Source of the DNA: Tagaea sp.
GTDB lineage: Bacteria > Pseudomonadota > Alphaproteobacteria > CACIAM-22H2
Reading direction: 5' to 3'
DNA length: 64,000 bases
Assembly (NCBI GenBank): GCA_965279525.1
Contig: CBDIIB010000005.1
Span: forward strand, 320,001-384,000
Shown: positions 28,417 through 41,155 of the stretch, piece by piece
How positions within the stretch are numbered: position 1 is the stretch's first letter
How the letters are laid out: each line of letters starts with the position of its first letter
Position numbers and translations under genes: made by a program
Notes under the pieces: generated by a model
Databases searched by the model: none
The model's input: the letters and a program-made list of their open reading frames with translations, nothing else
Told to the model about the DNA's origin: nothing

Positions 28417-28467
28417 CCGACGCGGCGGATTTGGATCCGGCGAACGATGGCCGGACGCCGGCATCCG

Positions 28468-28572
28468 GACAAAAAGAAAGGGCCGCGCCCGAAGGCACGG
28501 CCCAAGTTTAGGGAGGAAACGCCCACGAAACGGCCCGGAGGCCATTTCGAGCTGCGACAAATCAATGTCGCA
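28468..28572. repeat. Left att direct repeat (displaced sRNA copy, separated from native promoter)
   Basis: Identical to 38843-38947 (GACAAAAAGAAAGGGCCGCG...AAATCAATGTCGCA). Confidence 0.95.
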
Positions 28573-28663
28573 TTTTCCCAATAACTTGAGGTGCCTACGC
28601 TGGAATGGACGGAGACTAGTAGCAATGGCTACTGGCATCAAGCCTCTCAGTTCCGTGCGCCCG

Positions 28664-28682
28664 GTGTGACATGGGTGTGACA
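28664..28682. repeat. Putative integrase arm-type sites (GTGTGACA x2, 11-bp period)
   Basis: GTGTGACA at 28664 and 28675; same motif and spacing at the other island end (38796, 38807). Confidence 0.6.
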
Positions 28683-29053
28683 GGTCGCGACTAATAGTTC
28701 GGAAGGTTGCCAGAGAGGGGGGTGGACTAGGGCCATGCCGGGGGTGGGGGTAGTGCATATACGCGCTCGTGTGAAAATTCCTGACAGGAGTTGGCAACCA
28801 CCTCGACCAATCCGGATCGACCGATTGGATCCCACGAACAAAGAGCTAGCTCAGGAAATCTGGACAGCGGGATCTGCAGCATATCTGCCTGACGGTAGCC
28901 AATCTCCGCTATTGCAGGCACTCGACGCTCGGCTATGAGAGCCTGATAGCCTTCGAGGCGAAGATGCGGGTAGCTTAACTACGTGTCCACGGAACTCGGG
29001 GCATGCCAGATTATTATTGATTTGCATCGACGCCTTGACGTTAGTTTGTAGTT

Positions 29054-29584
29054 ATGACGTCAATCCGCACGATAGCTCTAGTCATTTTCGGGCTGTTTAT
29101 TGGCGCCGCAAGTCCTTCTGGGCTCGCGTCCGAACCCTTGCCTAAGGGTTTCTTTGAGCTTCGAAATCTGGAGTTTTCTACATCGTTTCAGGATGAAACC
29201 GGGCGACCGGTATCTTTAGAAAGTTTTCGAGGAAGAGTTGTGGTTCTGAATTTATGGGCAACATGGTGCGCGCCCTGTATCAAAGAGATGCCATCTCTAG
29301 ATCGGCTCTCGAAAGTACTCCCTGCCGATAAATTCGCGGTCGTAGCAGTGAGTCAAGACAATGCCGGTGTCCTCGTAGCGAAGCCTTTTTTGGCTAAACT
29401 TGGCGTGATGATGGTCAATTCCTATTTTGATCCAAGGGGCCGTGTATCACGGGACCTCAGCGCAAGAGGGCTTCCCACAACCGTCATTGTTAGCAGCAAG
29501 GGGACGTTAATTTCGCGCCTCGAAGGCGCGATTGAATGGGACGCGCAAGAGGTGGTTTCGTACCTTAAGTCGCTTACTCATTAG
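29054..29584 (+). CDS. TlpA/ResA-family extracytoplasmic thioredoxin
   Basis: N-terminal hydrophobic anchor/signal; LNLWATWCAPCIKEMPSL and GLPTT motifs. Confidence 0.92.
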   Translation: MTSIRTIALVIFGLFIGAASPSGLASEPLPKGFFELRNLEFSTSFQDETGRPVSLESFRGRVVVLNLWATWCAPCIKEMPSLDRLSKVLPADKFAVVAVSQDNAGVLVAKPFLAKLGVMMVNSYFDPRGRVSRDLSARGLPTTVIVSSKGTLISRLEGAIEWDAQEVVSYLKSLTH

Positions 29585-29647
29585 CCTTGCCCTCCTCTGT
29601 TGTTTCCCTTAAAGTTTTTTTAAGTTAATTTTGTGTGGGGGAACGCC

Positions 29648-29995
29648 ATGAAACTATTGGTTGGTTTTGTCTTTGCGGTATTCGCACTTTTTGCGGTCGC
29701 AAACCCTCCTGCCAATGCATCTGACGGATGCGTTGTGATAAAGTCTTCGCAATTGATGGCAGCCGAAATCAATGAATTGGGCTCGCCAGACGCAAAGTTC
29801 GCCATCGCCTCTTTGGAATCTTTCGCCAATGGAGCTGTTGAGAAGATTGCCAAAGAATCATCGGTCGGCAATCAAGGAAGCACCATTCAACTCGCTCAAA
29901 GCCGTAGCACCGGCTGCTCTTCCGGTTGCTCCAACGGGTGCTCCACCGGTTGCTCTGTCGGTTGTTCCGTTGGCTGTTCAGTAGGTTGTCGATAG
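29648..29995 (+). CDS. Secreted Cys-rich repeat peptide (115 aa) with C-terminal (xGCS)7-type tail; candidate precursor or metal-binding peptide
   Basis: GGGGGA RBS; Sec-type signal ending ANA; tail TGCSSGCSNGCSTGCSVGCSVGCSVGCR with synonymously diverged codons. Confidence 0.85.
   Translation: MKLLVGFVFAVFALFAVANPPANASDGCVVIKSSQLMAAEINELGSPDAKFAIASLESFANGAVEKIAKESSVGNQGSTIQLAQSRSTGCSSGCSNGCSTGCSVGCSVGCSVGCR
29909..29992 (+). repeat. Degenerate 12-bp tandem repeat x7 encoding xGCS
   Basis: accggctgctct tccggttgctcc aacgggtgctcc accggttgctct gtcggttgttcc gttggctgttca gtaggttgtcga. Confidence 0.9.
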
Positions 29996-30027
29996 TTGAT
30001 CCAGTGTCGTTAGTTTCTCAGTAGCTA

Positions 30028-32706
30028 TTGGCGAGTTTATCGACACATGCACGGCCCGGTTGGCAAGACCGGGCCGTTTGCATTTGGGCCGTAGCACTCA
30101 CAGCCACCTCGGCTTTTGCTATAGTTGATGCCAGTGAAGTTGCCGCACATTCCGCCGCGCTAGTTGGATTTCTTTTCCCGTCCAGGACTAGCCAAATTAG
30201 GCGAGTGGTATTGGTGCTCTTGGCAACAATTGGTTGGATGTTCGGTCCAACGTCTCTAATTGCTACAACTACGGGAATGCTTCTGATCGTTGCTATGGCA
30301 GATACAGCCATCGCCTTTGCATTTGCGATATGCACATGCGCATTTCTAGGTCACCACTTTCAGTCAATCGAGAGAATTTCGGGGCTAACTTTTCATATAG
30401 GCTCTTCGCCGTTTATTATTCTTCCTGCAATTGTCGCCTGCACATCTCTCAATTGGCGAATTGGATGGAGTGGCGTTCTCACTATCTTACTAGCCGCTAC
30501 AACTGTGCTCATCGGTATAAATTTGTCGGCAGCAATATGGATCAATCACAACACTTTGACATCTCAATATTTCCGACTGGCGGCTTCCGTGCTGCCGATT
30601 GCTATCGCAGCGCTCGCAGTTAGTTCGGGATCTACGCAATGCTTAAAAATGCCTTCTGTCTTTTGGATGCTCGGCGGCGTGACTATTGGCGCACTAGTCA
30701 CATTTGCTGCGCCCCAGTTTCCAGTCTCCCAGATCGTTTTTGACGAGGCTCATGGTCGCTGGGAAACCGTCAGGGCAACATTCGGTCCTAACGATTTCGG
30801 ACGCAGCGCAAACTACACATATAGCCTTCTAGAAAGGCATGCTGATCGTCTCGTAGGTTCTACTACCCTGGACAATGAGGGGGATTCGTTACCCCCCCAT
30901 GCCCTATTTGTATTGAAAATGCCCACAACGGCACTTTCAGATGAATTTTCCAGCCGACTTTATCAATGGATTTCCGATGGAGGGCGCCTATTGGTAGTGG
31001 CCGACCACACTGACCTCTACGACACTACTCAGAACTTGAATTTGTTTTTGCAGCTACTAGGCGTCAGCATAAATTCGGACGCGGTGTTTGATACGCGCGG
31101 AATGCCGACCGTCCCTGAGACGGAACAGTTCGCCTTTTTTCTGGGCCGCATAGACGCTTACGCAAAACCGCTTCCTTGGCAGACGGGTGCAAGCTTCGGA
31201 AGATTGCCCGCGAACGCCGTGGAGTTAGCGTCCTATGGGCCATCTTTCTCGGAGCCCGGCGACTATTCTCGCCCGAATCGCTTTGGCCCCTTCTTGCCAC
31301 GCTCCACTCTTCGCTTCACAAAACATACGGCAGTTGCGGCCTTCTCTGTTGGGGCGGGAGCAGTTGCCATCATTCTTGACAGCACGCCGTGGTCAAATTT
31401 TTCGATCTTTATTGACCAATATACGCGACTATTCCGATCTATCGTTTTCGCACTAAGCAATCCTATCGCAATAAAAATCTGGGGGTGGGCCGCACTGCTT
31501 CTGCCAATTGCGGGCATAGCTGTTCTGGTTTGGAGAACACGCACGATACTTGTTCTAGGTGGCGCCGTATTAGGTCTTGTCGTTGGTGCAGCTAGCCAGA
31601 TTGGTGCCCTATCTCATTTAATGCCGGTTGAGGGGCGGGATTTTGGATTGAAAGTTCAACTAGGAAACTCCGCTCGACTGGAGTTCTTGAAGCAACTTGT
31701 TGGGTCAGGAGACCGAAATTTTTCGCGAATTATTTCTGCCATGGCGAAGTACGGCCTTAATCCTTCGGCAGAGCTCCCAGGCACTGATGCTCAAACAATT
31801 TCTACCGCGAAGCGATGGCTTTTTATTCAGCCAGAGTTTCGCACTCTTCCAAATATTCAAGTCGTCCTGCGTCACCTCAAGGCTGGTGGCGATCTCACAA
31901 TTCTGTTTGGCCCAGAACAAGGGCAGAGCATGGAAATCGAAACTTGGCTGCGTTCGTTAGGGCTTAATTTGCGAAAGACTGTGGCGTTAGCTGTAGCAGA
32001 AGATGCGTATCTCGATCAGGGTGGATTGCTTACTCGCAGAGGACCATCGATCATCCGCGACGTACGGCCGGTCACTTCTGCTCTTCCAACCAGTATTCTG
32101 AAGCCTCACGATGGTGATCAGTTCTTTCAGTCTTATACATTGCGGCCGACTACGCTGCCCCGCACTAGTGGCCGGCTAACAGTAGGGTTCTCGGCCGATC
32201 AATTCTCAGATGATGCAGTAGGCGAAGTATGGGAGGGGACGAATCCTGCATCTATCGGGCGGTTGCGCGAACGGCAACTTGCATCCGCATTATTGGGGGA
32301 GGATTTCCCCGCACCATTCCCCAGCGAACTTGCCTATGTGCAGGCAAAAAAAGAGGGTAAAGCGCTTACTTCGTATCTAGTAATGGAGGATGGACGCACA
32401 ATCATTACGGGAAAATTCGAATCAGTTGAGAACACTACTGAAAATGTAGCTGCTATAAATCCGTCCGCCAATCCGGTGGGATATTTGCAGGACCTGCGCT
32501 CACGGGCACTGTCATTCGTTGACTTAAATTGCCCTCTAAGCGGCAAGGTCACATTCTGCGAGCGTCGAATGCTCGGCCCCGATATGACTGAATGGATGGT
32601 TTCCTGGGCGGCAGATATGAACGGAGCGCCGGTGGCGCTGGAGCTACTGCACGAGCGGCGGTTTTCGGGCCTCGGTAGCACGGTCAATGTTGTCTTTGGC
32701 GAGTAG
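30028..32706 (+). CDS. Large polytopic membrane protein with a DUF4350/class-I-GATase-like soluble domain (hypothetical)
   Basis: About 7-8 N-terminal hydrophobic segments, then IVFDEAHGRWE, GGRLLVVADHTD and IILDSTPWSN motifs, two more TMs and a C-terminal domain; start codon uncertain. Confidence 0.75.
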   Translation: MASLSTHARPGWQDRAVCIWAVALTATSAFAIVDASEVAAHSAALVGFLFPSRTSQIRRVVLVLLATIGWMFGPTSLIATTTGMLLIVAMADTAIAFAFAICTCAFLGHHFQSIERISGLTFHIGSSPFIILPAIVACTSLNWRIGWSGVLTILLAATTVLIGINLSAAIWINHNTLTSQYFRLAASVLPIAIAALAVSSGSTQCLKMPSVFWMLGGVTIGALVTFAAPQFPVSQIVFDEAHGRWETVRATFGPNDFGRSANYTYSLLERHADRLVGSTTLDNEGDSLPPHALFVLKMPTTALSDEFSSRLYQWISDGGRLLVVADHTDLYDTTQNLNLFLQLLGVSINSDAVFDTRGMPTVPETEQFAFFLGRIDAYAKPLPWQTGASFGRLPANAVELASYGPSFSEPGDYSRPNRFGPFLPRSTLRFTKHTAVAAFSVGAGAVAIILDSTPWSNFSIFIDQYTRLFRSIVFALSNPIAIKIWGWAALLLPIAGIAVLVWRTRTILVLGGAVLGLVVGAASQIGALSHLMPVEGRDFGLKVQLGNSARLEFLKQLVGSGDRNFSRIISAMAKYGLNPSAELPGTDAQTISTAKRWLFIQPEFRTLPNIQVVLRHLKAGGDLTILFGPEQGQSMEIETWLRSLGLNLRKTVALAVAEDAYLDQGGLLTRRGPSIIRDVRPVTSALPTSILKPHDGDQFFQSYTLRPTTLPRTSGRLTVGFSADQFSDDAVGEVWEGTNPASIGRLRERQLASALLGEDFPAPFPSELAYVQAKKEGKALTSYLVMEDGRTIITGKFESVENTTENVAAINPSANPVGYLQDLRSRALSFVDLNCPLSGKVTFCERRMLGPDMTEWMVSWAADMNGAPVALELLHERRFSGLGSTVNVVFGE

Positions 32707-34636
32707 CCGCCGAAGCGCCGCCTTCGCGGCGGTTGCGTCCGCCGCAGCGCATGCCTTTCCATTGGCCGCGCCATGGAGTCTGGTACTCCTTTTAGTGCCA
32801 TTTAGTGTTGGCCTGTTTGTTTTACGTAAGAGATCGAATCGCATCATTTGGCTGGTTCTTTGCACAAGCATTGCTGGCGCTGTTCTTGCCGGTATAGCTC
32901 CGGCACCAATTGCCATTGCATCTCTCTCCTTCACAGTATTGATATTTGTTGGCGCAGCTAGCGTCGGAGCTGCGCTGCTACTACTCAACATGTCTGTGAT
33001 TGGTAGTGCTGAGATGATGCTCGCACAGACGCTTGATATGATCGGACTAGAAGCAGCTGCGCCAGCAATGTTGACAACGGCAGTCTTGGTGATCGCTCGA
33101 CCCTCCGCTATTTCCGCTGGGGTTTGTTTAGCGGCAGTCTCCGCAATAGCTGCTCTTGTTGCTGACAAAATCGCCTCTCACCCGTATGCATTAATGATCG
33201 CCGCAGCAGTTCCGGCCACCATCTTTTCTGTTGTCGTATGTTTTGTTTCCGAGTCTTCACCAAGAGCCCGCTCTCTCGTGTTTATTGCCATTGCTTTCGG
33301 CTTGCTACTGCCTTGGGCAGCTACTCCCCCGAGATCGTGGGGCGAGATATTTGTTCTATTGCCAGATGCATCGGACACATACGAGGCACAGTTCTTTAAG
33401 AACTATACCGACGCCCTCAGATTTGCAGGCATACGAGCGGAGAGGGTTACTCGACTAAACGACATACCATCAAGATCATTGGTACTCATGCCGTGGACAT
33501 CCGCAGATTTTAAATCTGCGGATGACAACGAGATGCTCAAAAGCATAGGGCAGCTAGCTCAAGGTCATCAATGGACCGTTATCGTAGGCGGGGAGCATAC
33601 CAACTTGGGCGGTGCGGCGGACCGGATAGAAGCCATGAGCGGAAAGCCTTTTCTGCGCCGAGACCTCACAGTGCCGCCGTACAATACTGATGACTCTGGT
33701 CCTTTACACGTCTCTGATCTTCGTGAGTGGCCGCATGGAAGTATTTTGAATCGCGGCGCAAGCGTCGAAATAATGTCGCTTCTCGATAAAGTGCTGTTAG
33801 CCGGAGACGGATGGTGGGCAGAGCCCGACTTGGGCGAATGGCTGTGGGTCGGTGACTATATTTGGCGTTCAGGAGAGCGCGCCGGCCGAATGGCCTTGGC
33901 AATCGCTTCAGATTCAGGCGGTGCCCGCTGGATCATTGTTGGCGACAATAGCTTTTTCCTAAGTAACCAAATTTACGCTGATCCACGTACTTTGCTTCGA
34001 TTGATTGAACTCGCCTCGCTTTGGCCTGCTCTTGTTAAAGACATTGCGATTGGATTTCTCGCTATAGCAGGTTGCTTGCTTATGCTTGCTCACGTCACGT
34101 TAGCCGAAGCTAGCATCACGATGTCTTCCGTCTTTTTTGTAGTTTCTGGCATCTATATATTTCTATTTCCAACACCAGAGAGCAGTAGGTGGAGGGATAC
34201 ATACGTTGACCAAATTGGATTTGATGAAAGAAATTTCAACCTGGCATTCACGGAGAGCCCGCTACTTACAAACAGTAGGCGCCTGATGCGATTGAAGGGT
34301 TCATTCACCGGTGAATTTGAAGTTCCTCACGGAAACGCAATTATCTTTTTGCACGTTGATGGAACGATGACGGCTGGCAAAGCACGACTTACTAACTGCC
34401 GCCGGCTAGGTGCGCTTGCGCTTGAAGAAGGGCCGTACCTGATGGACGCCCAAGCCTGCCGCGTTACAGGTGCGGATAGAATTTTGATTGGTACTCCAGA
34501 AGCTGCTGTCGCATTTTCGATTCAATACGGATTGTCTGAAGCAATTTTTATTCTGGACACCGTCTTTCTAGGGCAAAAGGCGCCATCGAGTAATGCGGAT
34601 TGGTTGATTCGGGAGATGGCGATTGAGAAACGATAA
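32687..34636 (+). CDS. Polytopic membrane protein, apparent paralogue of the upstream gene (hypothetical)
   Basis: Overlaps the upstream stop; N-terminal TM block, then VIVGGEHTNLGG and WIIVGDNSFFLSN motifs, two TMs and a C-terminal domain. Confidence 0.75.
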   Translation: MLSLASSRRSAAFAAVASAAAHAFPLAAPWSLVLLLVPFSVGLFVLRKRSNRIIWLVLCTSIAGAVLAGIAPAPIAIASLSFTVLIFVGAASVGAALLLLNMSVIGSAEMMLAQTLDMIGLEAAAPAMLTTAVLVIARPSAISAGVCLAAVSAIAALVADKIASHPYALMIAAAVPATIFSVVVCFVSESSPRARSLVFIAIAFGLLLPWAATPPRSWGEIFVLLPDASDTYEAQFFKNYTDALRFAGIRAERVTRLNDIPSRSLVLMPWTSADFKSADDNEMLKSIGQLAQGHQWTVIVGGEHTNLGGAADRIEAMSGKPFLRRDLTVPPYNTDDSGPLHVSDLREWPHGSILNRGASVEIMSLLDKVLLAGDGWWAEPDLGEWLWVGDYIWRSGERAGRMALAIASDSGGARWIIVGDNSFFLSNQIYADPRTLLRLIELASLWPALVKDIAIGFLAIAGCLLMLAHVTLAEASITMSSVFFVVSGIYIFLFPTPESSRWRDTYVDQIGFDERNFNLAFTESPLLTNSRRLMRLKGSFTGEFEVPHGNAIIFLHVDGTMTAGKARLTNCRRLGALALEEGPYLMDAQACRVTGADRILIGTPEAAVAFSIQYGLSEAIFILDTVFLGQKAPSSNADWLIREMAIEKR

Positions 34637-34646
34637 ATCGCCTACG

Positions 34647-35063
34647 ATGATTGGACTACTGCCAGGTGGCGTGCCTCAACGGGAACCGTACCCTTCGGAA
34701 GACGTGTTTTTTAAAAGAAATATGCACATCTCAGGATTGGCAGCCGAAGATAATTCGGTTGTTCTAAACCCGTACAGCAATCTCTCTCCGACAGAGCGTC
34801 GCTGCGTTGCACTTAACGAAGCCGCCAGAGTTGTTATGCGGCGAGACCCTGAGTTGCAGCCCATATTCGATCTCACACCCGAACAGCTTGCTTCCTTCCA
34901 GAGCTACGGTCCCTTAGATAGCGTCAGAGCTACCGTAGCAGCGCGAATTCTTTCAGGTGATCCTAGTGCGTTGAGACCGACCGTCGACCAAACTAAGTTT
35001 GTGAAGAAACTCGCCACCGCGATGGGCCTCAAGAAGCGTAAGGCGGCCCCTTCCCCTGGCTAG
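34647..35063 (+). CDS. Hypothetical protein (possibly phage-related)
   Basis: Open frame of ~138 aa with natural composition immediately after the membrane-protein genes. Confidence 0.6.
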   Translation: MIGLLPGGVPQREPYPSEDVFFKRNMHISGLAAEDNSVVLNPYSNLSPTERRCVALNEAARVVMRRDPELQPIFDLTPEQLASFQSYGPLDSVRATVAARILSGDPSALRPTVDQTKFVKKLATAMGLKKRKAAPSPG

Positions 35064-35131
35064 TAACACGGGGGGGTTCAAAATGAACTTTCTTTGGTTC
35101 TATTTGGCGCGGGGGTCCTATAGACCCACAC

Positions 35132-35385
35132 TGTCCGTCGTCAGAATAATCGGGACGTTTTGAGGCGGCTGTTAACGGAGGCTTCGGCGCATCTGCGTTG
35201 GCAGTATTGGCGGTCGCTTGCCGATGCCAGCAAGCGGCGGTGCTCGATGGTTCTGCGCTTGATCGTCTCCCTCCTTTCCAGAATGGCCTGCCCACGTTCG
35301 GTATAGACGTTGGCCCGCGCGAGGATACTGAGGCGCTCGTGGTATCGGCAGTAGTTGTAGTGATCGACGAAGCTGCCGATGCTCG
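35132..35385 (-). pseudogene. IS3-family transposase C-terminal remnant with adjacent IS end
   Basis: IGSFVDHYNYCRYHERL...VYTERGQAILERRETIKRRTIEHRRL resembles IS3 OrfB C-termini; TGTCCGTCGTCAGA end-like sequence at 35132. Confidence 0.7.
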
Positions 35386-35397
35386 CGTAGTGAAGAG

Positions 35398-35631
35398 TCA
35401 CTTCGCAGCAGTTGCCCTGAAACGCCCCCCAGTCAGAGCGGCGCGTAACTCTTTCTGGAACCGCCCCTGTATCTGAATCGTACCCTTCTTGGGCCACCAG
35501 TTGAGTATTTGCCCAAGGTCAGTCGTGAACGTCGCCCGCCCATCCTGGCCGCCCAAAGCCCAAGTACCGACGATACCGAGCCGAGTGATCTCATTGCGTA
35601 GCTCACTGATGGTTCCTACGAATGGCTCCAT
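35398..35631 (-). CDS. Small hypothetical protein (77 aa)
   Basis: AAGGA RBS upstream; LNWWPKKGTIQIQG motif. Confidence 0.55.
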   Translation of the reverse strand: MEPFVGTISELRNEITRLGIVGTWALGGQDGRATFTTDLGQILNWWPKKGTIQIQGRFQKELRAALTGGRFRATAAK

Positions 35632-36086
35632 TCGATGTGATCCTTCTCTGTTGACGGTCGGCTAGGCCCCGTTGCCATGCCATTCGAGTCAGGAGAGTCG
35701 CCACACACTGGCAACCACCCTCTTGGTACCTACCTAGCCAGATTGGAACGGCCGACTCAGTGACTCTCTAATGGCGATTGAGGCCCTATGGACTTGGGCT
35801 TTCTAGGACCCCCGTGGGGGATATGCCTTGCCTCGTGTGCCTGCCTTATTGGCAGATCAGAAGGGGCATCTCCTGTTAAGGCCTTGATACTGAGTCATTG
35901 TCCGTAACAGTGACCATCGAATCCAGTAACTGATCTTAGTTATAGTTATTACTATTATTCTTCTCGCAAAAAGGGCCGTAATTTCCCTCGGATCTAGGCG
36001 GTCTCTCCCTTTCTATCTTCCAAATTCATCCCTACAGCACCCTTACAATGGGGTAGTGCGCTTCCAACCGTGGGCGAAGCCCACAG

Positions 36087-37532
36087 TCACACCAACTCCT
36101 TCCGATAGGCCCCCCGAAGGGGGTAATCATTCTTTCCATCCGAGATCATAAACAGACTGGCATCCATAAGATTGGATCCATCGATCATCTGCTTACCGTC
36201 ACGATCTGTGATCTTCAGGCTAATCAGTACCCCGAATCGTTCCTGGAACACTTGGACCATGACCCTCTGAAGCTCCTCAGAACGCTCCTCCGCAATGATG
36301 AAGCTGTCGTGGACCGGGAGTACGGGGATCCCTTCGTCTGCGAAGTGCAGCATGACCGTCTCTGCGAGCTGGCTCTCCCAGAACTGCATGGTCTTGCCTA
36401 CGCCCGTATGGAACAGGTCGCTCAGCGGAGCGAAGTGCAATTTGACCCTCTCGACGAACTCGCCCCGTGTGACGCCGAGTACTGTCTCGTCATAACCCTC
36501 TTCCAGGTCGAAGCTCTTGAGATGAGGTTGACGAACCCATCCCCTCTTATCGTTGATCAGGGCATTGAAGGTCTTCTTCACCCATATCCGAACGATTGGC
36601 GGGGCATCCGGGAACGCGTCGTACACATCGGCAGGAATTGGCATGCTCCGGGATGCGTAGAGCATGCTCGGGTGTAGGCCGACATAGTCCACTTCGACCG
36701 TCTGATACCCATCGATGGTCAGATATGGTCGGTACTCCTTAGGCATGTTCTGCCATGAGGATTGGAAGAATCGACCACCGCGCTGGAAGCTTGCATCGTT
36801 GAACTTGCGCACAAGAGTTCGCTTGCGTGGATCGAATGGTCGACGGAGCTTCGTGCCTATCATGCGCCGGTTGAGATCGATCAAATCGCCGGGCAAGAGA
36901 TCCATTGCAATCTTGGAGTCTCGGAGTACCGCGTTGATGGTCCCAATATTCGCCCGCTTCGCCTCTGTTTCAGGCGTCGGATCGAACTGGATCGGTTTCT
37001 TCATCGCGTCCCGAAGCTCGATATCCGCGTGCCAGTGGTCAACGTGCTCGATCTCATCTGGGGAGAAATCGGGAATTGCTACGATCCGCTCGATCAGGCT
37101 CGGCGTAGCTCGTATCTTCGTGTTGAAGTACATCGCGGCACTCGGCGCATACAATCCTTTCTTGGCAATCTCGATAAGCCCGGCAGTCCGCAGTCCTTCG
37201 TACGCTTGGATCATCGGGCGATAGGTTATCCCTCGCTGGGCATATCGACTGGTTGCCGCATATTTGCTCCGATTGAGATCGATGCCGACGGTGCACCCGG
37301 GCAGATTTTCATGCGCAAGAATCAGGTTCAGAAGGAGAGCGCGAAGAGCTGCAGTAAGGCGTTCAAGCTCCATCTTGGAGCGCTTGCGACGACCCGAAGC
37401 CGTGTCAATCTCAGTGGCGATCTGTGAGACGAGGACATCGAAGCCCTCGTTCTCAATCACGTAGCTGGGGTCAATCGGAACAGAAAGTATTTGGGACGGG
37501 CTGACTGCATCACTCAAGTTGCGATCCTTCAT
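36087..37532 (-). CDS. Stand-alone superfamily-A polymerase-like protein (PolA/T7-RNAP-type palm; TV-Pol-like)
   Basis: GGRFF..WQN, motif A VEVDYVGLHP, motif B-like KKTFNALIN, QFWES and motif C PVHDSFII; no exonuclease domain evident. Confidence 0.7.
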   Translation of the reverse strand: MKDRNLSDAVSPSQILSVPIDPSYVIENEGFDVLVSQIATEIDTASGRRKRSKMELERLTAALRALLLNLILAHENLPGCTVGIDLNRSKYAATSRYAQRGITYRPMIQAYEGLRTAGLIEIAKKGLYAPSAAMYFNTKIRATPSLIERIVAIPDFSPDEIEHVDHWHADIELRDAMKKPIQFDPTPETEAKRANIGTINAVLRDSKIAMDLLPGDLIDLNRRMIGTKLRRPFDPRKRTLVRKFNDASFQRGGRFFQSSWQNMPKEYRPYLTIDGYQTVEVDYVGLHPSMLYASRSMPIPADVYDAFPDAPPIVRIWVKKTFNALINDKRGWVRQPHLKSFDLEEGYDETVLGVTRGEFVERVKLHFAPLSDLFHTGVGKTMQFWESQLAETVMLHFADEGIPVLPVHDSFIIAEERSEELQRVMVQVFQERFGVLISLKITDRDGKQMIDGSNLMDASLFMISDGKNDYPLRGAYRKELV

Positions 37533-37770
37533 GGCAGCAAAGGACGCAAGGGGCGTCGTCGCCCAACGACGTCCTTAGATTCTGAGATGAGATTGACTTG
37601 AGGCAGTGGCAAGACCGAGTCTTCGCGTGCTGCCTACATATTACTTGGGCATCACGCGGAGACTTTTCAAGTGAGTGACGATGAATTTCTCACATCGCAG
37701 TTTCACCCGCCCCTGTCTTTGGCAGTGAAGCTCGAAGGGACTTGGAAATCCCCGTTGAGGCTAGGCCCTT

Positions 37771-38793
37771 TCAGGGAACTGCATCCGGTGGTGACAGCAG
37801 TACCGGGCCAGATTCGGTAGCAACTTGCTTGGCCGATAGGCATGCGAGCTTCTTCGCAACATCTTCAGGCCGAAGATGCGTGTAGCGAAACAGCATGCGC
37901 GGATCCCGGTGCCCGGAGATCAGGGCGACTTCGGGGATGCTCAACCCGGCTTCGAAGAACCGGCTAACAGCCTCGTGGCGCAGGTCGTGAAAATGTAGAT
38001 CCTCGATCCCAGCTCGACGCACTGCGCGATACCACCTCATTTGGATTGCCCTCGGACTCCACTCGAATATGCGATGCCCCTCTCTGCACGGAAGGCTCTG
38101 AAGGATAGCTACGGCAACAGGAGTAAGCGGGATAGTTCGAGGGTAACCGTTCTTGGCTTCCCTAACGACGAGGAGACTAGAGGCTAGATCAATATCGGTC
38201 GGCTCAAGTCGGACAAGCTCGCCCCTTCGCAGGCCGGTCTCCAGCGCGAACAAGACAAGGCCATGGAACTTGGGATCGAGGGCCGCCAGCAATAGCCGCA
38301 TTTCCCCAGGCGCTATTCGCCGTGTCCGATGCCTGCCTGCCGCAGGCTTGCGAACCTGAATGAGGGCATCCGCCATCGGCATCGACCATTCGCGATGGGC
38401 ATACCGCAGAATTGTCTGCAGCAAACCAAGCTCCCGCCGGACAGTCTCGGTCGAACACGCAGCTAGGCGGCGATCACGATATTGGGCAAGGCAGGAGGCC
38501 GGAATCTGATGCATGGGAAGATGCATCCATTTTTCTCGCAGCATGACCGCGAGTAGCCCCACGCAATTCTCTTCGCGCCGCATCGAGACGGCAACTTCGG
38601 TTCGATAGCGTTCGACTACGTCGATCAAGGGTGGGGCAGTCAGAACCAAGGCCTCCCCGAGGTCGACCCGACGCTCGTGGAGCCGCGCCCATTGCTGGGC
38701 ATCCTGACGTGTTGAAAAGGTCTTGCTGAGCTTGTGTCCTGCGCGACGGACCTGAACCTGGTACATCGAGCCGCGACGACGAATGGTAGCCAT
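37771..38793 (-). CDS. Tyrosine recombinase/integrase with N-terminal arm-binding domain
   Basis: MATIRRRG..YQVQVRR N-terminus; catalytic TGLRRGEL (R), AKNG (K), HDLRH (H-x-x-R), SGH and RYTHL (Y). Confidence 0.93.
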   Translation of the reverse strand: MATIRRRGSMYQVQVRRAGHKLSKTFSTRQDAQQWARLHERRVDLGEALVLTAPPLIDVVERYRTEVAVSMRREENCVGLLAVMLREKWMHLPMHQIPASCLAQYRDRRLAACSTETVRRELGLLQTILRYAHREWSMPMADALIQVRKPAAGRHRTRRIAPGEMRLLLAALDPKFHGLVLFALETGLRRGELVRLEPTDIDLASSLLVVREAKNGYPRTIPLTPVAVAILQSLPCREGHRIFEWSPRAIQMRWYRAVRRAGIEDLHFHDLRHEAVSRFFEAGLSIPEVALISGHRDPRMLFRYTHLRPEDVAKKLACLSAKQVATESGPVLLSPPDAVP

Positions 38794-38795
38794 GC

Positions 38796-38821
38796 TGTGA
38801 CACCCGTGTGACACGCGTGAC
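38796..38821. repeat. Putative integrase arm-type sites (TGTGACA x2 at 11-bp period plus a partial GTGAC)
   Basis: ctgtgacacccgtgtgacacgcgtgacc between the integrase start and the right att repeat. Confidence 0.6.
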
Positions 38822-38845
38822 CAGCAACCGGGCTAACCCTTTGAC

Positions 38846-38947
38846 AAAAAGAAAGGGCCGCGCCCGAAGGCACGGCCCAAGTTTAGGGAGGAAACGCCCA
38901 CGAAACGGCCCGGAGGCCATTTCGAGCTGCGACAAATCAATGTCGCA
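38846..38947 (-). ncRNA. SuhB/MmgR (alpha-r8)-family small RNA, promoter-retaining copy; lies within the right att repeat 38843-38947
   Basis: Minus strand: hairpin CGAAATGGCC-TCCG-GGCCGTTTCG, UUUCCUCCCU decamer, ACTTGGGCCG terminator stem and U-tract; TTGTGCA heptamer just upstream. 5' end approximate. Confidence 0.8.
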
Positions 38948-39103
38948 CTGCACAATTTAATTGTTGCGGCGCAAAAATCAAGGGCAATTATGCGGTGACC
39001 ATCTGAAATCTCATGATTAATTTGTAGTACTTCGATTATCCACCTGATTTATTTGTGCTATTCGAGGCCCTCTCAGACCCCCTCCCTTGCCGCAATGCAG
39101 CAT
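38948..39103. promoter_or_regulatory. AT-rich divergent promoter region (sRNA / mlaE) with TTGTGCA heptamer and TGC-GCA-rich motifs
   Basis: TGCACAA at 38949-38955; TTGCGGCGCAA and TGCCGCAATGCAGCA motifs resemble PhaR/AniA-type operators (inference). Confidence 0.45.
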
Positions 39104-39188
39104 ACAGAAATACGAATGTAGAGGATCAGCGACGCTCCAAGGGACGGCTTGCCCTTGCTGCGGCCCGGCTTCAAGAATGGGTGGACGC

Positions 39189-40358
39189 ATGGAGTCGGGA
39201 CGGATGGACGGGGACCGCACACAGCGCGGCGATGCCGGCTGGGCGCGCAGCCGCTTGGAAGGGTCCGCCGCCGTCGTGGCGCTCGGCGGGCGCTGGACAC
39301 TTGCGCACGCGCGCACGCTCGAGGAAACGCTCGGCCGCATCGACACGAAAGGTGCGGCGGCGCTGCGCATCGACTTTTCCGATGTCGCGGCGATCGACAC
39401 CGGCGGTGCATGGCTGCTGCACCGGCAAATCCTGCGCTGGCAGGAAGCCGGCGGCGAGATCGAGCTTGTCCGCGCGAACCATGCCCAGACCGCCCTGCTC
39501 GAGCGCATGTCGATCGAGAACGAGGTCCGCATGTCGCTGGCACGCCCCGGCGAAGGGGCGATGCGCGAACTCGTCATCCGGACCGGCGAGGCGACGGTCG
39601 ATATGGCGCGCGAGGCCCATGCGCTGCTGTCGTTCGTCGGCGCCGTCTTCTCGGCGTGGGGCCGCGCCTGGCGCAGGCCCGGCCGCATCCGCCTGACGAG
39701 TACCGTCTTCCACATCGAGCGCATCGGCATCGACGCACTGCCGATCATGGGGCTGCTGGCATACCTGATCGGCGTCGTTCTCGCGTTCCAGGGCGCCGAC
39801 CAGCTTCGCCAGTACGGCGCGGAAGTTTTCACGATCAACCTGCTGGGCGTGTCGATCCTGCGCGAGATCGGCGTGCTGATCACCGCGATCATGGTCGCCG
39901 GGCGCACGGGCAGCGCCTTCGCCGCCGAGATCGGGACGATGAAGGTGAACCAGGAAGTCGACGCCATGCGCACGATCGGCCTCGATCCGATGGAAACGCT
40001 CGTCATGCCGCGCCTGTTCGCGCTGGCGATCGCCCTGCCGCTTCTGGTTTTCTTCGCCAACGCGATGGCGCTTGCCGGCGGTGCCACGATGGTCATCGTC
40101 GGGCTCGACCTGTCGCTGCCGCAGTTCTTCGAACAGCTTGCCGCAGCGGTCACGTTTTCCACGTTCCTCGTCGGCATGATCAAGGCGCCGGTCTTTGCGG
40201 TGCTGATCGGCATGGTCGCATGCTACGAAGGACTGAAGGTTTCAGGATCGGCCGAAAGCGTGGGCATCCACACCACGCGTTCGGTCGTCAAATCGATCTT
40301 CCTGGTCATCCTGTTCGACGCCGCCTTCTCGATCTTTTTCTCGCAGATCGGCCTATGA
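39189..40358 (+). CDS. mlaE: MlaE-family ABC permease with N-terminal STAS domain
   Basis: DTGGAWL STAS motif; REIGVLITAIMVAGRTGSAFAAEIGTMKV. Confidence 0.9.
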   Translation: MESGRMDGDRTQRGDAGWARSRLEGSAAVVALGGRWTLAHARTLEETLGRIDTKGAAALRIDFSDVAAIDTGGAWLLHRQILRWQEAGGEIELVRANHAQTALLERMSIENEVRMSLARPGEGAMRELVIRTGEATVDMAREAHALLSFVGAVFSAWGRAWRRPGRIRLTSTVFHIERIGIDALPIMGLLAYLIGVVLAFQGADQLRQYGAEVFTINLLGVSILREIGVLITAIMVAGRTGSAFAAEIGTMKVNQEVDAMRTIGLDPMETLVMPRLFALAIALPLLVFFANAMALAGGATMVIVGLDLSLPQFFEQLAAAVTFSTFLVGMIKAPVFAVLIGMVACYEGLKVSGSAESVGIHTTRSVVKSIFLVILFDAAFSIFFSQIGL

Positions 40359-41155
40359 GCGAACCCGTCATCCGCGTCCGCAATCTCGTCACCCGCTTCG
40401 GCGCGCAGACGATCCATGACGGCGTCAATCTGGAAGTCCGGCGCGGCGAGATCCTCGCGATCGTCGGCGGCTCGGGAACCGGCAAGTCCGTCCTGCTGCG
40501 CACGATCCTGGGACTGAAGGCACCGGACGGCGGCACGGTCGAGGTGCTCGGCAAGAACCTCTCCGCACTCGACGACGACGCGCGGCGGCCGGTGCTCAAG
40601 CGCATGGGTGTCCTGTTCCAGGATGGCGCGCTGTTCAGCGCGCGCACCGTGGCCCAGAACATCCGGCTCCCCTTCTCGGAGCATACCGACCTCGACCACC
40701 GGCTGGTCACCCAGCTCATCCGCGTCAAGCTCGCGATGGTCGGGCTGCCGCAGGAGGCCGGCGCCAAGATCCCGGCCGAGCTGTCGGGCGGCATGCGCAA
40801 GCGCGCGGGACTGGCGCGCGCCATCGCCCTCGACCCCGACGTCCTGTTCCTCGACGAACCGACCGCCGGTCTCGACCCGATCGGGGCGGCGAAGTTCGAC
40901 GAGCTGATCCGCGACCTGCAGCGCTCGCTTTCGCTCAGCGTCGTGATGATCACGCACGACGTCGACACGCTCTGCGCGATCGCCGACCGCATCGCGGTCC
41001 TGCTCGACAAGAAGATGGTCGTCGGAACGCTGGACGAAATCCGCGCCTACCCCCATCCTTGGGTCCACGAGTACTTTTCCGGCCCGCGCGGACGCGCGGC
41101 GCAGACCGGGCGCTACGAGCCGGACGAAAAGACTTCGGACAGGAAGGACGCCTAG
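40355..41155 (+). CDS. mlaF: MlaF-family ABC ATPase
   Basis: GGSGTGKS, LSGGMRKR and DEPTAGLDP motifs. Confidence 0.9.
   Translation: MSEPVIRVRNLVTRFGAQTIHDGVNLEVRRGEILAIVGGSGTGKSVLLRTILGLKAPDGGTVEVLGKNLSALDDDARRPVLKRMGVLFQDGALFSARTVAQNIRLPFSEHTDLDHRLVTQLIRVKLAMVGLPQEAGAKIPAELSGGMRKRAGLARAIALDPDVLFLDEPTAGLDPIGAAKFDELIRDLQRSLSLSVVMITHDVDTLCAIADRIAVLLDKKMVVGTLDEIRAYPHPWVHEYFSGPRGRAAQTGRYEPDEKTSDRKDA

Follow-up and report, generated by a model that had tools for sequence, protein, structure and literature searches.

A cysteine-ladder peptide and its membrane partners on an integrative island of Tagaea sp.: a candidate peptide-handling system

The window analysed here is a stretch of 64,000 nucleotides from the alphaproteobacterium Tagaea sp. 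(contig CBDIIB010000005.1, positions 320,001 to 384,000 of the forward strand), and all coordinates below are those of this stretch. Our subject is a gene at 29648-29995 that encodes a small peptide ending in a ladder of regularly spaced cysteines, together with the genes that accompany it. In the window these form a cassette of five in the order TlpA-like gene, peptide, M892, M649 and a 146-amino-acid protein, M892 and M649 being large polytopic membrane proteins. The peptide and the membrane pair look like an undescribed peptide-handling system, and the literature searched yielded no publication on either the peptide family or the cassette. The features of the cassette are as follows.

29054 to 29584, plus strand: TlpA-like periplasmic thiol:disulfide oxidoreductase of 176 amino acids, with an N-terminal hydrophobic segment and the motif W-C-A-P-C (Redoxin 1.7e-16)
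29648 to 29719, plus strand: signal-like N-terminus of the peptide, residues 1-24, ending in A-N-A (from its Kyte-Doolittle hydrophobic peak and an AxA in the sequence)
29720 to 29902, plus strand: conserved middle domain of the peptide, residues 25-85, a putative leader-like docking module (from the alignment and predicted contacts)
29903 to 29995, plus strand: core of the peptide, R-(S-x-G-C)7-R, and stop codon, residues 86-115 (from the sequence and family statistics)
30051 to 30077, plus strand: terminator-like hairpin of 11 pairs (8 G-C) and then a T-rich tail, 56 nucleotides past the peptide stop
30028 to 32706, plus strand: M892, a polytopic membrane protein of 892 amino acids with about nine transmembrane helices, a GIFT/DUF4350-like domain, a transmembrane hairpin and a C-terminal domain
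32687 to 34636, plus strand: M649, a polytopic membrane protein of 649 amino acids and paralogue of M892 (from hhalign and an AlphaFold2 model)
34623 to 35063, plus strand: protein of 146 amino acids without family (Pfam and NCBIfam scans negative) or hydrophobic segment, a recurrent cassette member

The open reading frame of the peptide begins with the ATG at 29648 and ends with the TAG at 29993-29995 of the plus strand, giving a product of 115 amino acids; the listing of reading frames extends it to 29633..29995 (plus) through an upstream GTG, which leaves frame and product unchanged. Residues 1-19 form the hydrophobic segment, and the A-N-A directly before S25 looks, by eye, like a signal-peptidase I site. 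N-termini of homologues look similar and are hydrophobic in every one read. The middle domain contains the motifs E-I-x-G-L-G-x-P-D-A-K-F and G-[DN]-Q-G and is followed by a tail that runs TIQLAQ-S-R-S-TGCS-SGCS-NGCS-TGCS-VGCS-VGCS-VGCR-stop, in which the ladder cysteines occupy positions 90, 94, 98, 102, 106, 110 and 114 (i,i+4). Cys28 is the single cysteine ahead of the ladder and brings the total to eight. A previous interpretation from the letters alone, hereafter the sequence-only reading, had described just such a signal-like start, one-cysteine middle and seven-unit tail, and its description was borne out in every checkable detail. Codons vary from unit to unit (GGC/GGT/GGG for Gly, TGC/TGT for Cys, TCT/TCC/TCA for Ser) and Tandem Repeats Finder recovers at the ladder only four copies of a 12-nucleotide unit with 75% matches (29908-29955); the ladder is therefore maintained as protein and did not arise by recent slippage of the DNA. 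The peptide has no match at E <= 1 among Pfam or NCBIfam models, its profile finds nothing among PDB sequences better than E 0.44, its only match in PHROGs is a weak one to phrog_6085 (E 0.0022, function unknown), and its neighbours in the protein atlas are exclusively 'hypothetical protein' clusters (0.81-0.82). The V-G-C motif was considered as a lipobox and set aside, there being no signal h-region ahead of it and a Ser at position -3.

When a collection of 5.8 billion proteins was searched with the peptide, 80 of 532 candidates were homologues at E <= 0.01, chosen without any motif pattern; they are 97-186 amino acids long, share at best 55% identity with the peptide and are all unnamed or 'hypothetical'. 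A pattern scan of metagenomes matched at least 119 further stretches, 80 with flanking DNA, and a family member is encoded in 50 of these 80 loci; the loci were selected by the pattern (G-C-S-x)3-G-C-R-stop and their C-termini are biased accordingly. In every homologue read, a G-C-S ladder follows a hydrophobic N-terminus and a middle region, an architecture kept at 27-55% identity. In the pooled non-redundant set of 125 peptides, which joins database homologues and metagenome loci, 892 of 904 ladder cysteines carry Ser at position -3, and the natural register is therefore R-(S-x-G-C)n-R. Among the 80 database homologues, 548 of 561 ladder cysteines have Gly directly ahead of them and 472 of 481 have Ser directly behind; R-S are the two residues preceding the first unit in 69 proteins, and Arg directly follows the last Cys in 68, being the final residue of the protein in 48. 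Repeat number, which the sequence-only reading had proposed to compare among homologues, does vary, from 4 to 10 cysteines in the database homologues and from 4 to 11 overall. The units are not equivalent, since the variable x drifts along the ladder, being T/S in its first units and V/M/Y/I in its last, and charged x residues are nearly absent. The middle region has the consensus KS..EI.GL..PDAKF.I and G.QG, with D48 invariant in the family alignment.

The same comparison separates two parts of the earlier proposal, that LAQ marks a boundary between leader and core. A leader/core logic is plausible; its placement at LAQ did not hold, this motif, a characteristic of the close subfamily of the window peptide, lying at most 11 residues from the junction in only 5 of the 80 homologues, while R-S occupies the junction instead. 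Cysteine spacing is conserved among homologues and the LAQ junction is not. Selection on the ladder at the protein level, also proposed there, is confirmed by the codon variation between units, the 80 homologues and low ratios of non-synonymous to synonymous substitution (dN/dS). In pairwise comparisons of metagenome loci, several window-type pairs had a dN/dS of 0.06-0.14, and none of the 23 pairs that gave a ratio (0.06-0.88), out of 36 listed, reached 1, the remaining 13 being synonymously saturated; the highest values came from the near-identical pair L224/L056 and from several pairs of the other leader type. The peptide family is real and under purifying selection. A five-unit G-C-S pattern scan of genome contigs gave at least 120 matches, nearly all of those with DNA being simple-repeat artefacts, and L056 was the sole clear family member among the matches listed.

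Leaders of other types are joined to the ladder elsewhere. A second type, F-S-S-P-A-A..S-F, was found at 18 loci, and a third, ..W-V-x-V-N-L-x-x-M-Q-x-P-D-A-T-F.., precedes the same ladder at L149, L173 and L181 and in database proteins P0041 and P0074. One database protein of 186 amino acids (P0065) has a TlpA-like domain fused to a seven-cysteine ladder; this could be a fusion or a frameshifted assembly, and would in either case reflect the same gene order in another organism. At L126 two family peptide genes stand in tandem (offsets +3 and +347) before one M892/M649 pair.

The gene neighbourhood recurs with the peptide. BLASTP, clustering and profile search served to compare the window proteins with the open reading frames at the 50 loci, and an M892 relative was present in 19 of the 26 loci with at least 600 nucleotides of downstream DNA, directly downstream of the peptide in window-type loci. 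The seven loci without a match comprise the three of the third leader type, a false positive (L192), and three of the second leader type (L176, L199 and L200) that have too little flanking DNA or a truncated match. An M649 relative follows M892 in 8-9 loci, a homologue of the 146-amino-acid protein occurs in six, and a TlpA-like gene is found in 13, directly upstream of the peptide in nine and after M649 in four. All six window-type loci that span -700 to +5800 hold both TlpA and M892. Second-leader loci pair with a distant M892 relative (660-760 amino acids) and a protein of 510-590 amino acids. Radical-SAM, YcaO, Lan and MNIO enzymes were absent, by Pfam and NCBIfam, from the cassettes and from 71 flanking open reading frames at 12 loci. 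At L149 a homologue of the 146-amino-acid protein adjoins the peptide of third leader type.

A hairpin behind the peptide gene is a further recurrent feature. The segment 29990-30100 folds with -43.3 kcal/mol (z -3.68), and a hairpin of -15 kcal/mol or lower lies within 130 nucleotides past the peptide stop in 36 of 47 loci, compared with 3 of 24 control stretches situated 700 nucleotides further on. It is plausible from this arrangement that the peptide transcript is made in excess over the downstream genes.

The thioredoxin encoded upstream matches Pfam Redoxin and AhpC-TSA (1.7e-16 and 3.5e-16), carries its C-x-x-C as Cys72 and Cys75, and is matched by PDB TlpA 1jfu at 9.8e-26. The NCBIfam TlpA equivalog model finds it at 2.9e-35, but with 122 bits against a cut-off of 230 bits, and it is therefore called TlpA-like and not a TlpA equivalog. 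Its thioredoxin fold, C-x-x-C and N-terminal export-type segment are those expected of a TlpA/ResA-type protein, to which class its sequence assigns it.

M892 is laid out as a transmembrane bundle, a GIFT-like alpha/beta domain at about 232-460, a transmembrane hairpin at 479-530 and a C-terminal domain at 541-892 with invariant C835 and C844; M649 has a transmembrane bundle, a GIFT-like domain at about 217-449, a transmembrane hairpin and, at its C-terminus, a beta-sandwich in which C571 and C591 are invariant. Relatives of M892 (129 at E <= 1e-5 among 8000 candidates scored) are named only 'DUF4350 domain-containing' or 'hypothetical', and Pfam DUF4350 gives M892 33.2 bits against a cut-off of 30.4 and matches 45 of 45 members of its family. 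Among 1.84 billion proteins, M649 has 142 relatives, counted as cluster representatives, at E <= 0.001. Alignment of the two families with hhalign (probability 96.9, E 1.4e-10) shows that M892 and M649 are paralogues, and their AlphaFold2 models, with a predicted local distance difference test score (pLDDT) of 88.9 and predicted TM-score (pTM) of 0.88 for M892 and of 95.0 and 0.93 for M649, share a plan of N-terminal helical bundle, alpha/beta domain, transmembrane hairpin and C-terminal domain. The start of M892 is ambiguous between the long frame from the TTG at 30028 and a database gene call of 830 amino acids that begins 62 codons later; the long frame includes the hairpin described above, and the family consensus 'A-R...R-A' near 30028-30214 could reflect a conserved hairpin rather than constraint on the protein.

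Fold searches with these models, whose results are dominated by residues 232-538 of M892 and 217-498 of M649 and barely cover the transmembrane bundles and C-terminal domains, matched the alpha/beta domain of M892 to the IFT52 N-domain (Z 17.7, root-mean-square deviation 2.9, 209 residues aligned; Foldseek agrees), the S1P C-domain (Z 17.3) and OST48 (Z 14.6), and that of M649 to the S1P C-domain (Z 11.6), IFT52 (Z 11.4) and OST48 (Z 10.7). As modelled, this domain has the GIFT or class-I-glutamine-amidotransferase-like fold in both proteins. Whichever of the two leader types they accompany, M892 relatives have A-D-H-T-D-L-[YF] after the strand 320-324 and D-S-T..[SA]-N-F after the strand 444-449, positions that we take to be those where catalytic members of the fold carry their nucleophile and His/Glu; no Cys or Ser nucleophile motif is present. 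The distribution of Lys and Arg over both alignments agrees with an N-in topology that places the GIFT and C-terminal domains outside, and the invariant Cys pair in each C-terminal domain likewise fits a periplasmic location, so that both domains are probably periplasmic. A GT-C or WaaL-like identity of the transmembrane bundle was considered and rejected, there being no Pfam signal in the 45 and 56 members of the two families and no conserved acidic first loop.

A predicted complex connects the peptide to M892. The membrane protein was co-folded with peptide residues 25-115, using our own unpaired alignments, in three runs and three controls; the runs scored 0.67, 0.61 and 0.65, the best of the controls 0.00, and the runs have at least 58% of contacts in common. 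This mark is one that 116 of 157 solved complexes reached, as did 2 of 215 mismatched pairs, counts that are approximate for our own alignments. On the peptide, confident contacts extend over residues 29-78 and are tightest at 49-54 (A-K-F-A-I-A); on M892 they involve the C-terminal domain (737-739, 782-795 and 841-892) and the GIFT domain (243-245, 258-260, 263, 300, 330-332, 413-414 and 418), among them the invariant G243, W245, G258, R259, Y263, L330, Y413 and R418. The predicted mode is strand addition to a beta-sheet. M892 relatives at second-leader loci have another C-terminal domain while keeping the GIFT motifs A-D-H-T-D-L and D-S-T..N-F; leader type and C-terminal domain type thus change together, which is independent support for docking. 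Docking of the middle domain on M892 is accordingly a supported prediction, and this region, which the sequence-only reading took for a spacer, holds the conserved motifs of the family.

In the window the whole cassette is cargo of an integrative island, the remaining features of which are these.

28468 to 28572, no strand: left copy of a perfect 105-nucleotide direct repeat found by repeat search, forming the island boundary and overlapping a match to the mmgR/suhB small RNA at 28465-28549 (minus strand)
38843 to 38947, no strand: right copy of the repeat, from the same search, overlapping a second mmgR match at 38840-38924 (minus strand)
37771 to 38814, minus strand: tyrosine integrase of the island (Pfam Phage_integrase 2.1e-22)
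36087 to 37532, minus strand: island protein of 481 amino acids, unknown function (phrog_4756, E 5.2e-38)

The two repeats are 10,375 nucleotides apart and enclose an island of 10.4 kb (28468-38947), the mmgR/suhB small RNA gene being the insertion site and hence present twice. G+C content is about 0.49-0.56 in the island and 0.65-0.68 in its flanks. Two genomes of the same genus (L246 and L248) have the flanks contiguous over one copy of the repeat and no island, and this empty site identifies the island as an insertion. L245, a third genome, has a match to 38634-40900 that extends into the right end of the island, and it contains a repeat copy; it may carry a related island with other cargo. 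The peptide profile found nothing in 20 same-genus genomes and, in 60 relatives, only two weak matches, each with an internal stop codon; the M892 profile was likewise without a match at E <= 1e-10 in 400 other genomes sampled from the phylum, as was M892 by tblastn in plasmid and phage collections. Flanks of the loci L126, L129, L144, L155 and L056 contain genes for primase-like proteins (DUF3987, DUF5906), resolvase, integrase, Mrr-helicase, Macro, ADP-ribosylglycohydrolase and PIN proteins and a group II intron, which is a mobile-element or conflict-island setting. In 2 of 12 loci, GT2 and PMT_2 (GT-C type) glycosyltransferase genes adjoin the cassette (L129, +5.5 to +8.2 kb; L176, -4.1 to -0.5 kb), and these may hint at periplasmic glycosylation or be ordinary mobile-element cargo.

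The cassette shares individual features with several described systems. In System II cytochrome c maturation (ResA/ResB/ResC), a TlpA/ResA-type reductant and two polytopic membrane proteins act on the cysteines of an exported apoprotein, and the cassette similarly pairs a reductant of this type with two polytopic membrane proteins having large, probably periplasmic parts; unlike System II, it shows no sequence or fold relation to ResB/ResC, no C-x-x-C-H in the peptide and no evidence of a cofactor. His-Xaa-Ser repeat systems, which depend on radical-SAM maturases, combine a leader with a short-period, low-complexity core, as does the window peptide, and the sequence-only reading had drawn this parallel; it fails on context, since the cassettes examined contain no radical-SAM or other known maturase, and the repeat here is S-x-G-C, without an NCBIfam match. 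Like metallothioneins and phytochelatins, the peptide is rich in Cys, Gly and Ser, has a variable number of thiol units and a core without aromatics, from which it is set apart by its signal-like N-terminus, docking domain, strict S-x-G-C period, dedicated membrane partners and want of a Pfam match. The alpha/beta domain of M892 and M649 resembles that of the GIFT proteins GldG, IFT52 and OST48 (DUF4350, ABC_transp_aux), whereas in M892 it sits between a bundle of about nine transmembrane helices and a transmembrane hairpin, followed by a further domain, and carries invariant D-H-T-D and D-S-T motifs of its own. We know of no GIFT protein that binds a Cys-repeat peptide. An archaeal DUF4350 family, predicted in the accessible part of PMC5898192 to belong to a secretion or membrane-remodelling complex, differs from M892 in the architecture given there.

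Among peptides that ribosomes make and that are modified after translation (RiPPs), precursors with a Sec signal are described as highly unusual in the accessible part of PMC12452194, which names the MNIO-dependent bufferins and oxazolins. Bufferins are presented as MNIO-modified, Sec-exported, Cys-containing RiPPs (PMC11626156, accessible part), and an MNIO (DUF692) enzyme with a DUF2063-type partner adjoins bufferin and oxazolin precursors (PMC12452194). As characterised there, these have a small precursor, a Sec-type signal, functional cysteines and a product acting outside the cytoplasm; the window peptide is likewise small, has a signal-like N-terminus and would resemble them in the role of its cysteines and in its site of action, the repeated Cys motif being E-G-K-C-G in oxazolins and S-x-G-C here. 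Unlike them, the window cassette lacks MNIO (DUF692), DUF2063 and DoxX in Pfam and NCBIfam scans, its partners are GIFT-domain membrane proteins and a TlpA-like thioredoxin, and a large conserved docking domain separates signal from core.

We consider, with a probability of about one half, that the cassette encodes an exported leader-plus-core peptide that the thioredoxin keeps reduced and the two membrane proteins handle or modify. The cassette of five genes would be self-contained and mobile, and the peptide its small, abundant product. Its precursor would be exported by Sec, with the signal peptide removed after A-N-A, as the sequence suggests. The middle domain of about 60 residues would then act as a leader-like docking module for M892, the A-K-F-A-I-A strand and G-[DN]-Q-G binding its C-terminal domain and that face of its GIFT domain which is most conserved, and M649 would serve as paralogous partner. 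The TlpA-like thioredoxin, judging from the role of the TlpA/ResA family, would keep the cysteines of the ladder in thiol form within the oxidising periplasm. Finally, the R-(S-x-G-C)n-R tail is predicted to be processed or modified unit by unit, at the motifs D-H-T-D and D-S-T in the GIFT domain and/or where the protein meets the membrane, and may be released at the conserved Arg-Ser junction. The division of the peptide is that of a RiPP leader with an independently varying core, the middle being conserved, the ladder varying between 4 and 11 units and the co-fold docking the middle and not the core, although no known maturase family stands beside it.

The composition of the ladder bears on what the final step might be. 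Pairing of Ser with Cys in a 1:1 ratio and an invariant Gly favour covalent use of both side chains, or recognition of S-x-G-C, over plain chelation, and together with the near-invariance of all three residues the polar-to-hydrophobic gradient argues that the S-x-G-C unit is what is recognised or chemically changed. Tentatively, and with the balance of odds against it, the cassette could represent a new class of extracytoplasmic maturation of ribosomal peptides, in which the GIFT membrane pair, as a new enzyme family marked by D-H-T-D and D-S-T, docks the leader by strand addition and converts each S-x-G-C of the exported, thioredoxin-reduced core covalently. Cross-links derived from Ser and Cys in series are one conceivable product, a lipid or cofactor adduct another, and the outcome would be a ladder-shaped molecule spread by small integrative elements.

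Several results weigh against handling or modification by the membrane pair. The best structural matches of the GIFT fold (IFT52, the S1P C-terminal domain, OST48 and the middle domain of GH42) are non-catalytic modules, and M892 may only bind the peptide. The co-fold leaves the Cys ladder unplaced, pLDDT of the partner within it is low (52-56), and the calibration of its score is approximate for our own unpaired alignments. TlpA was found at none of the 18 second-leader loci within the DNA available, so a dedicated reductase is not universal, and L149, L173 and L181 have no M892 relative in 1.1-1.2 kb of downstream DNA.

A possible alternative, which we regard as rather doubtful, is that the ladder is used as it stands, as an unmodified periplasmic series of thiols and a ribosomal analogue of metallothioneins and phytochelatins, reduced by TlpA and with M892 and M649 as receptor or hand-over partner; its ligands would be soft metals and metalloids (Cu(I), Cd, Hg, As) or sulfane sulfur. 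G-C-S occurs in fungal Cu-metallothioneins, phytochelatins have the make-up (gamma-Glu-Cys)n, and the ladder itself, 25% Cys amid Gly and Ser and variable in length from 4 to 11 units, is in keeping with such a function, as are the adjacent TlpA-like reductant, the resemblance of GIFT domains to binding modules and the carriage of the cassette on a mobile island, where resistance traits are often found. Against this, no metal-resistance family was detected at E <= 1e-5 among the 71 neighbouring open reading frames of the 12 loci, and the Gly before and Ser after each Cys, with charged x scarce, are held more tightly than chelation alone would require. The second cassette type appears without TlpA in the DNA available, and the need for two membrane proteins of 650-900 amino acids is left without explanation.

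Less probable again, and in our view unlikely, is a secreted structural or surface component that would dock by strand addition on an M892/M649 platform and then be polymerised or anchored through disulfides of the ladder, altering the cell envelope, for instance as surface exclusion carried by mobile elements. Strand addition is indeed the docking mode predicted, the archaeal DUF4350 family has been proposed in a secretion or membrane-remodelling complex (PMC5898192, accessible part), mobile-element and conflict genes neighbour the cassette elsewhere, and glycosyltransferase genes adjoin it at two of the 12 loci. The cassette nevertheless includes no conserved outer-membrane or secretion component, a reductase would be odd beside a disulfide-forming protein, and the anti-phage defence models of PADLOC returned no family at E <= 0.01 for eight proteins, the cassette proteins among them.

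That the peptide is a classical cytoplasmic RiPP, made by azole-forming, lanthipeptide-like, radical-SAM or MNIO enzymes encoded elsewhere and then exported, seems very improbable. G-C-S and S-x-G-C do resemble known heterocyclisation and ring motifs. Bufferins and oxazolins set a precedent for Sec-signal precursors (PMC12452194, accessible part), but no such enzyme occurs in the cassettes or flanks examined, the cassette moves as a unit on the 10.4-kb island while the peptide profile is absent from the 20 same-genus genomes, and the TlpA partner suggests chemistry outside the cytoplasm. A non-functional chance frame over a simple-sequence repeat has a negligible probability, since, common as G-C-S-x-coding simple repeats are and nearly exclusively as the five-unit genome scan returned such artefacts, it is contradicted by an architecture kept at 27-55% identity, saturated synonymous changes with low dN/dS, synteny and a recurrent hairpin.

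The motifs R-(S-x-G-C)n-R, P-D-A-K-F and D-H-T-D offer handles for mutagenesis and genome mining, and on either of the two foremost readings the cassette is a compact unit of four to five genes on mobile elements that lends itself to cloning in one piece and to direct tests. A ladder used without modification would amount to an exported counterpart, made by the ribosome, of metallothioneins and phytochelatins with its own reductase and membrane receptor. If instead the membrane pair processes the ladder, the cassette would represent a periplasmic, ATP-free route of peptide maturation without a known maturase family, and would provide a first function for one family of DUF4350/GIFT-domain membrane proteins.

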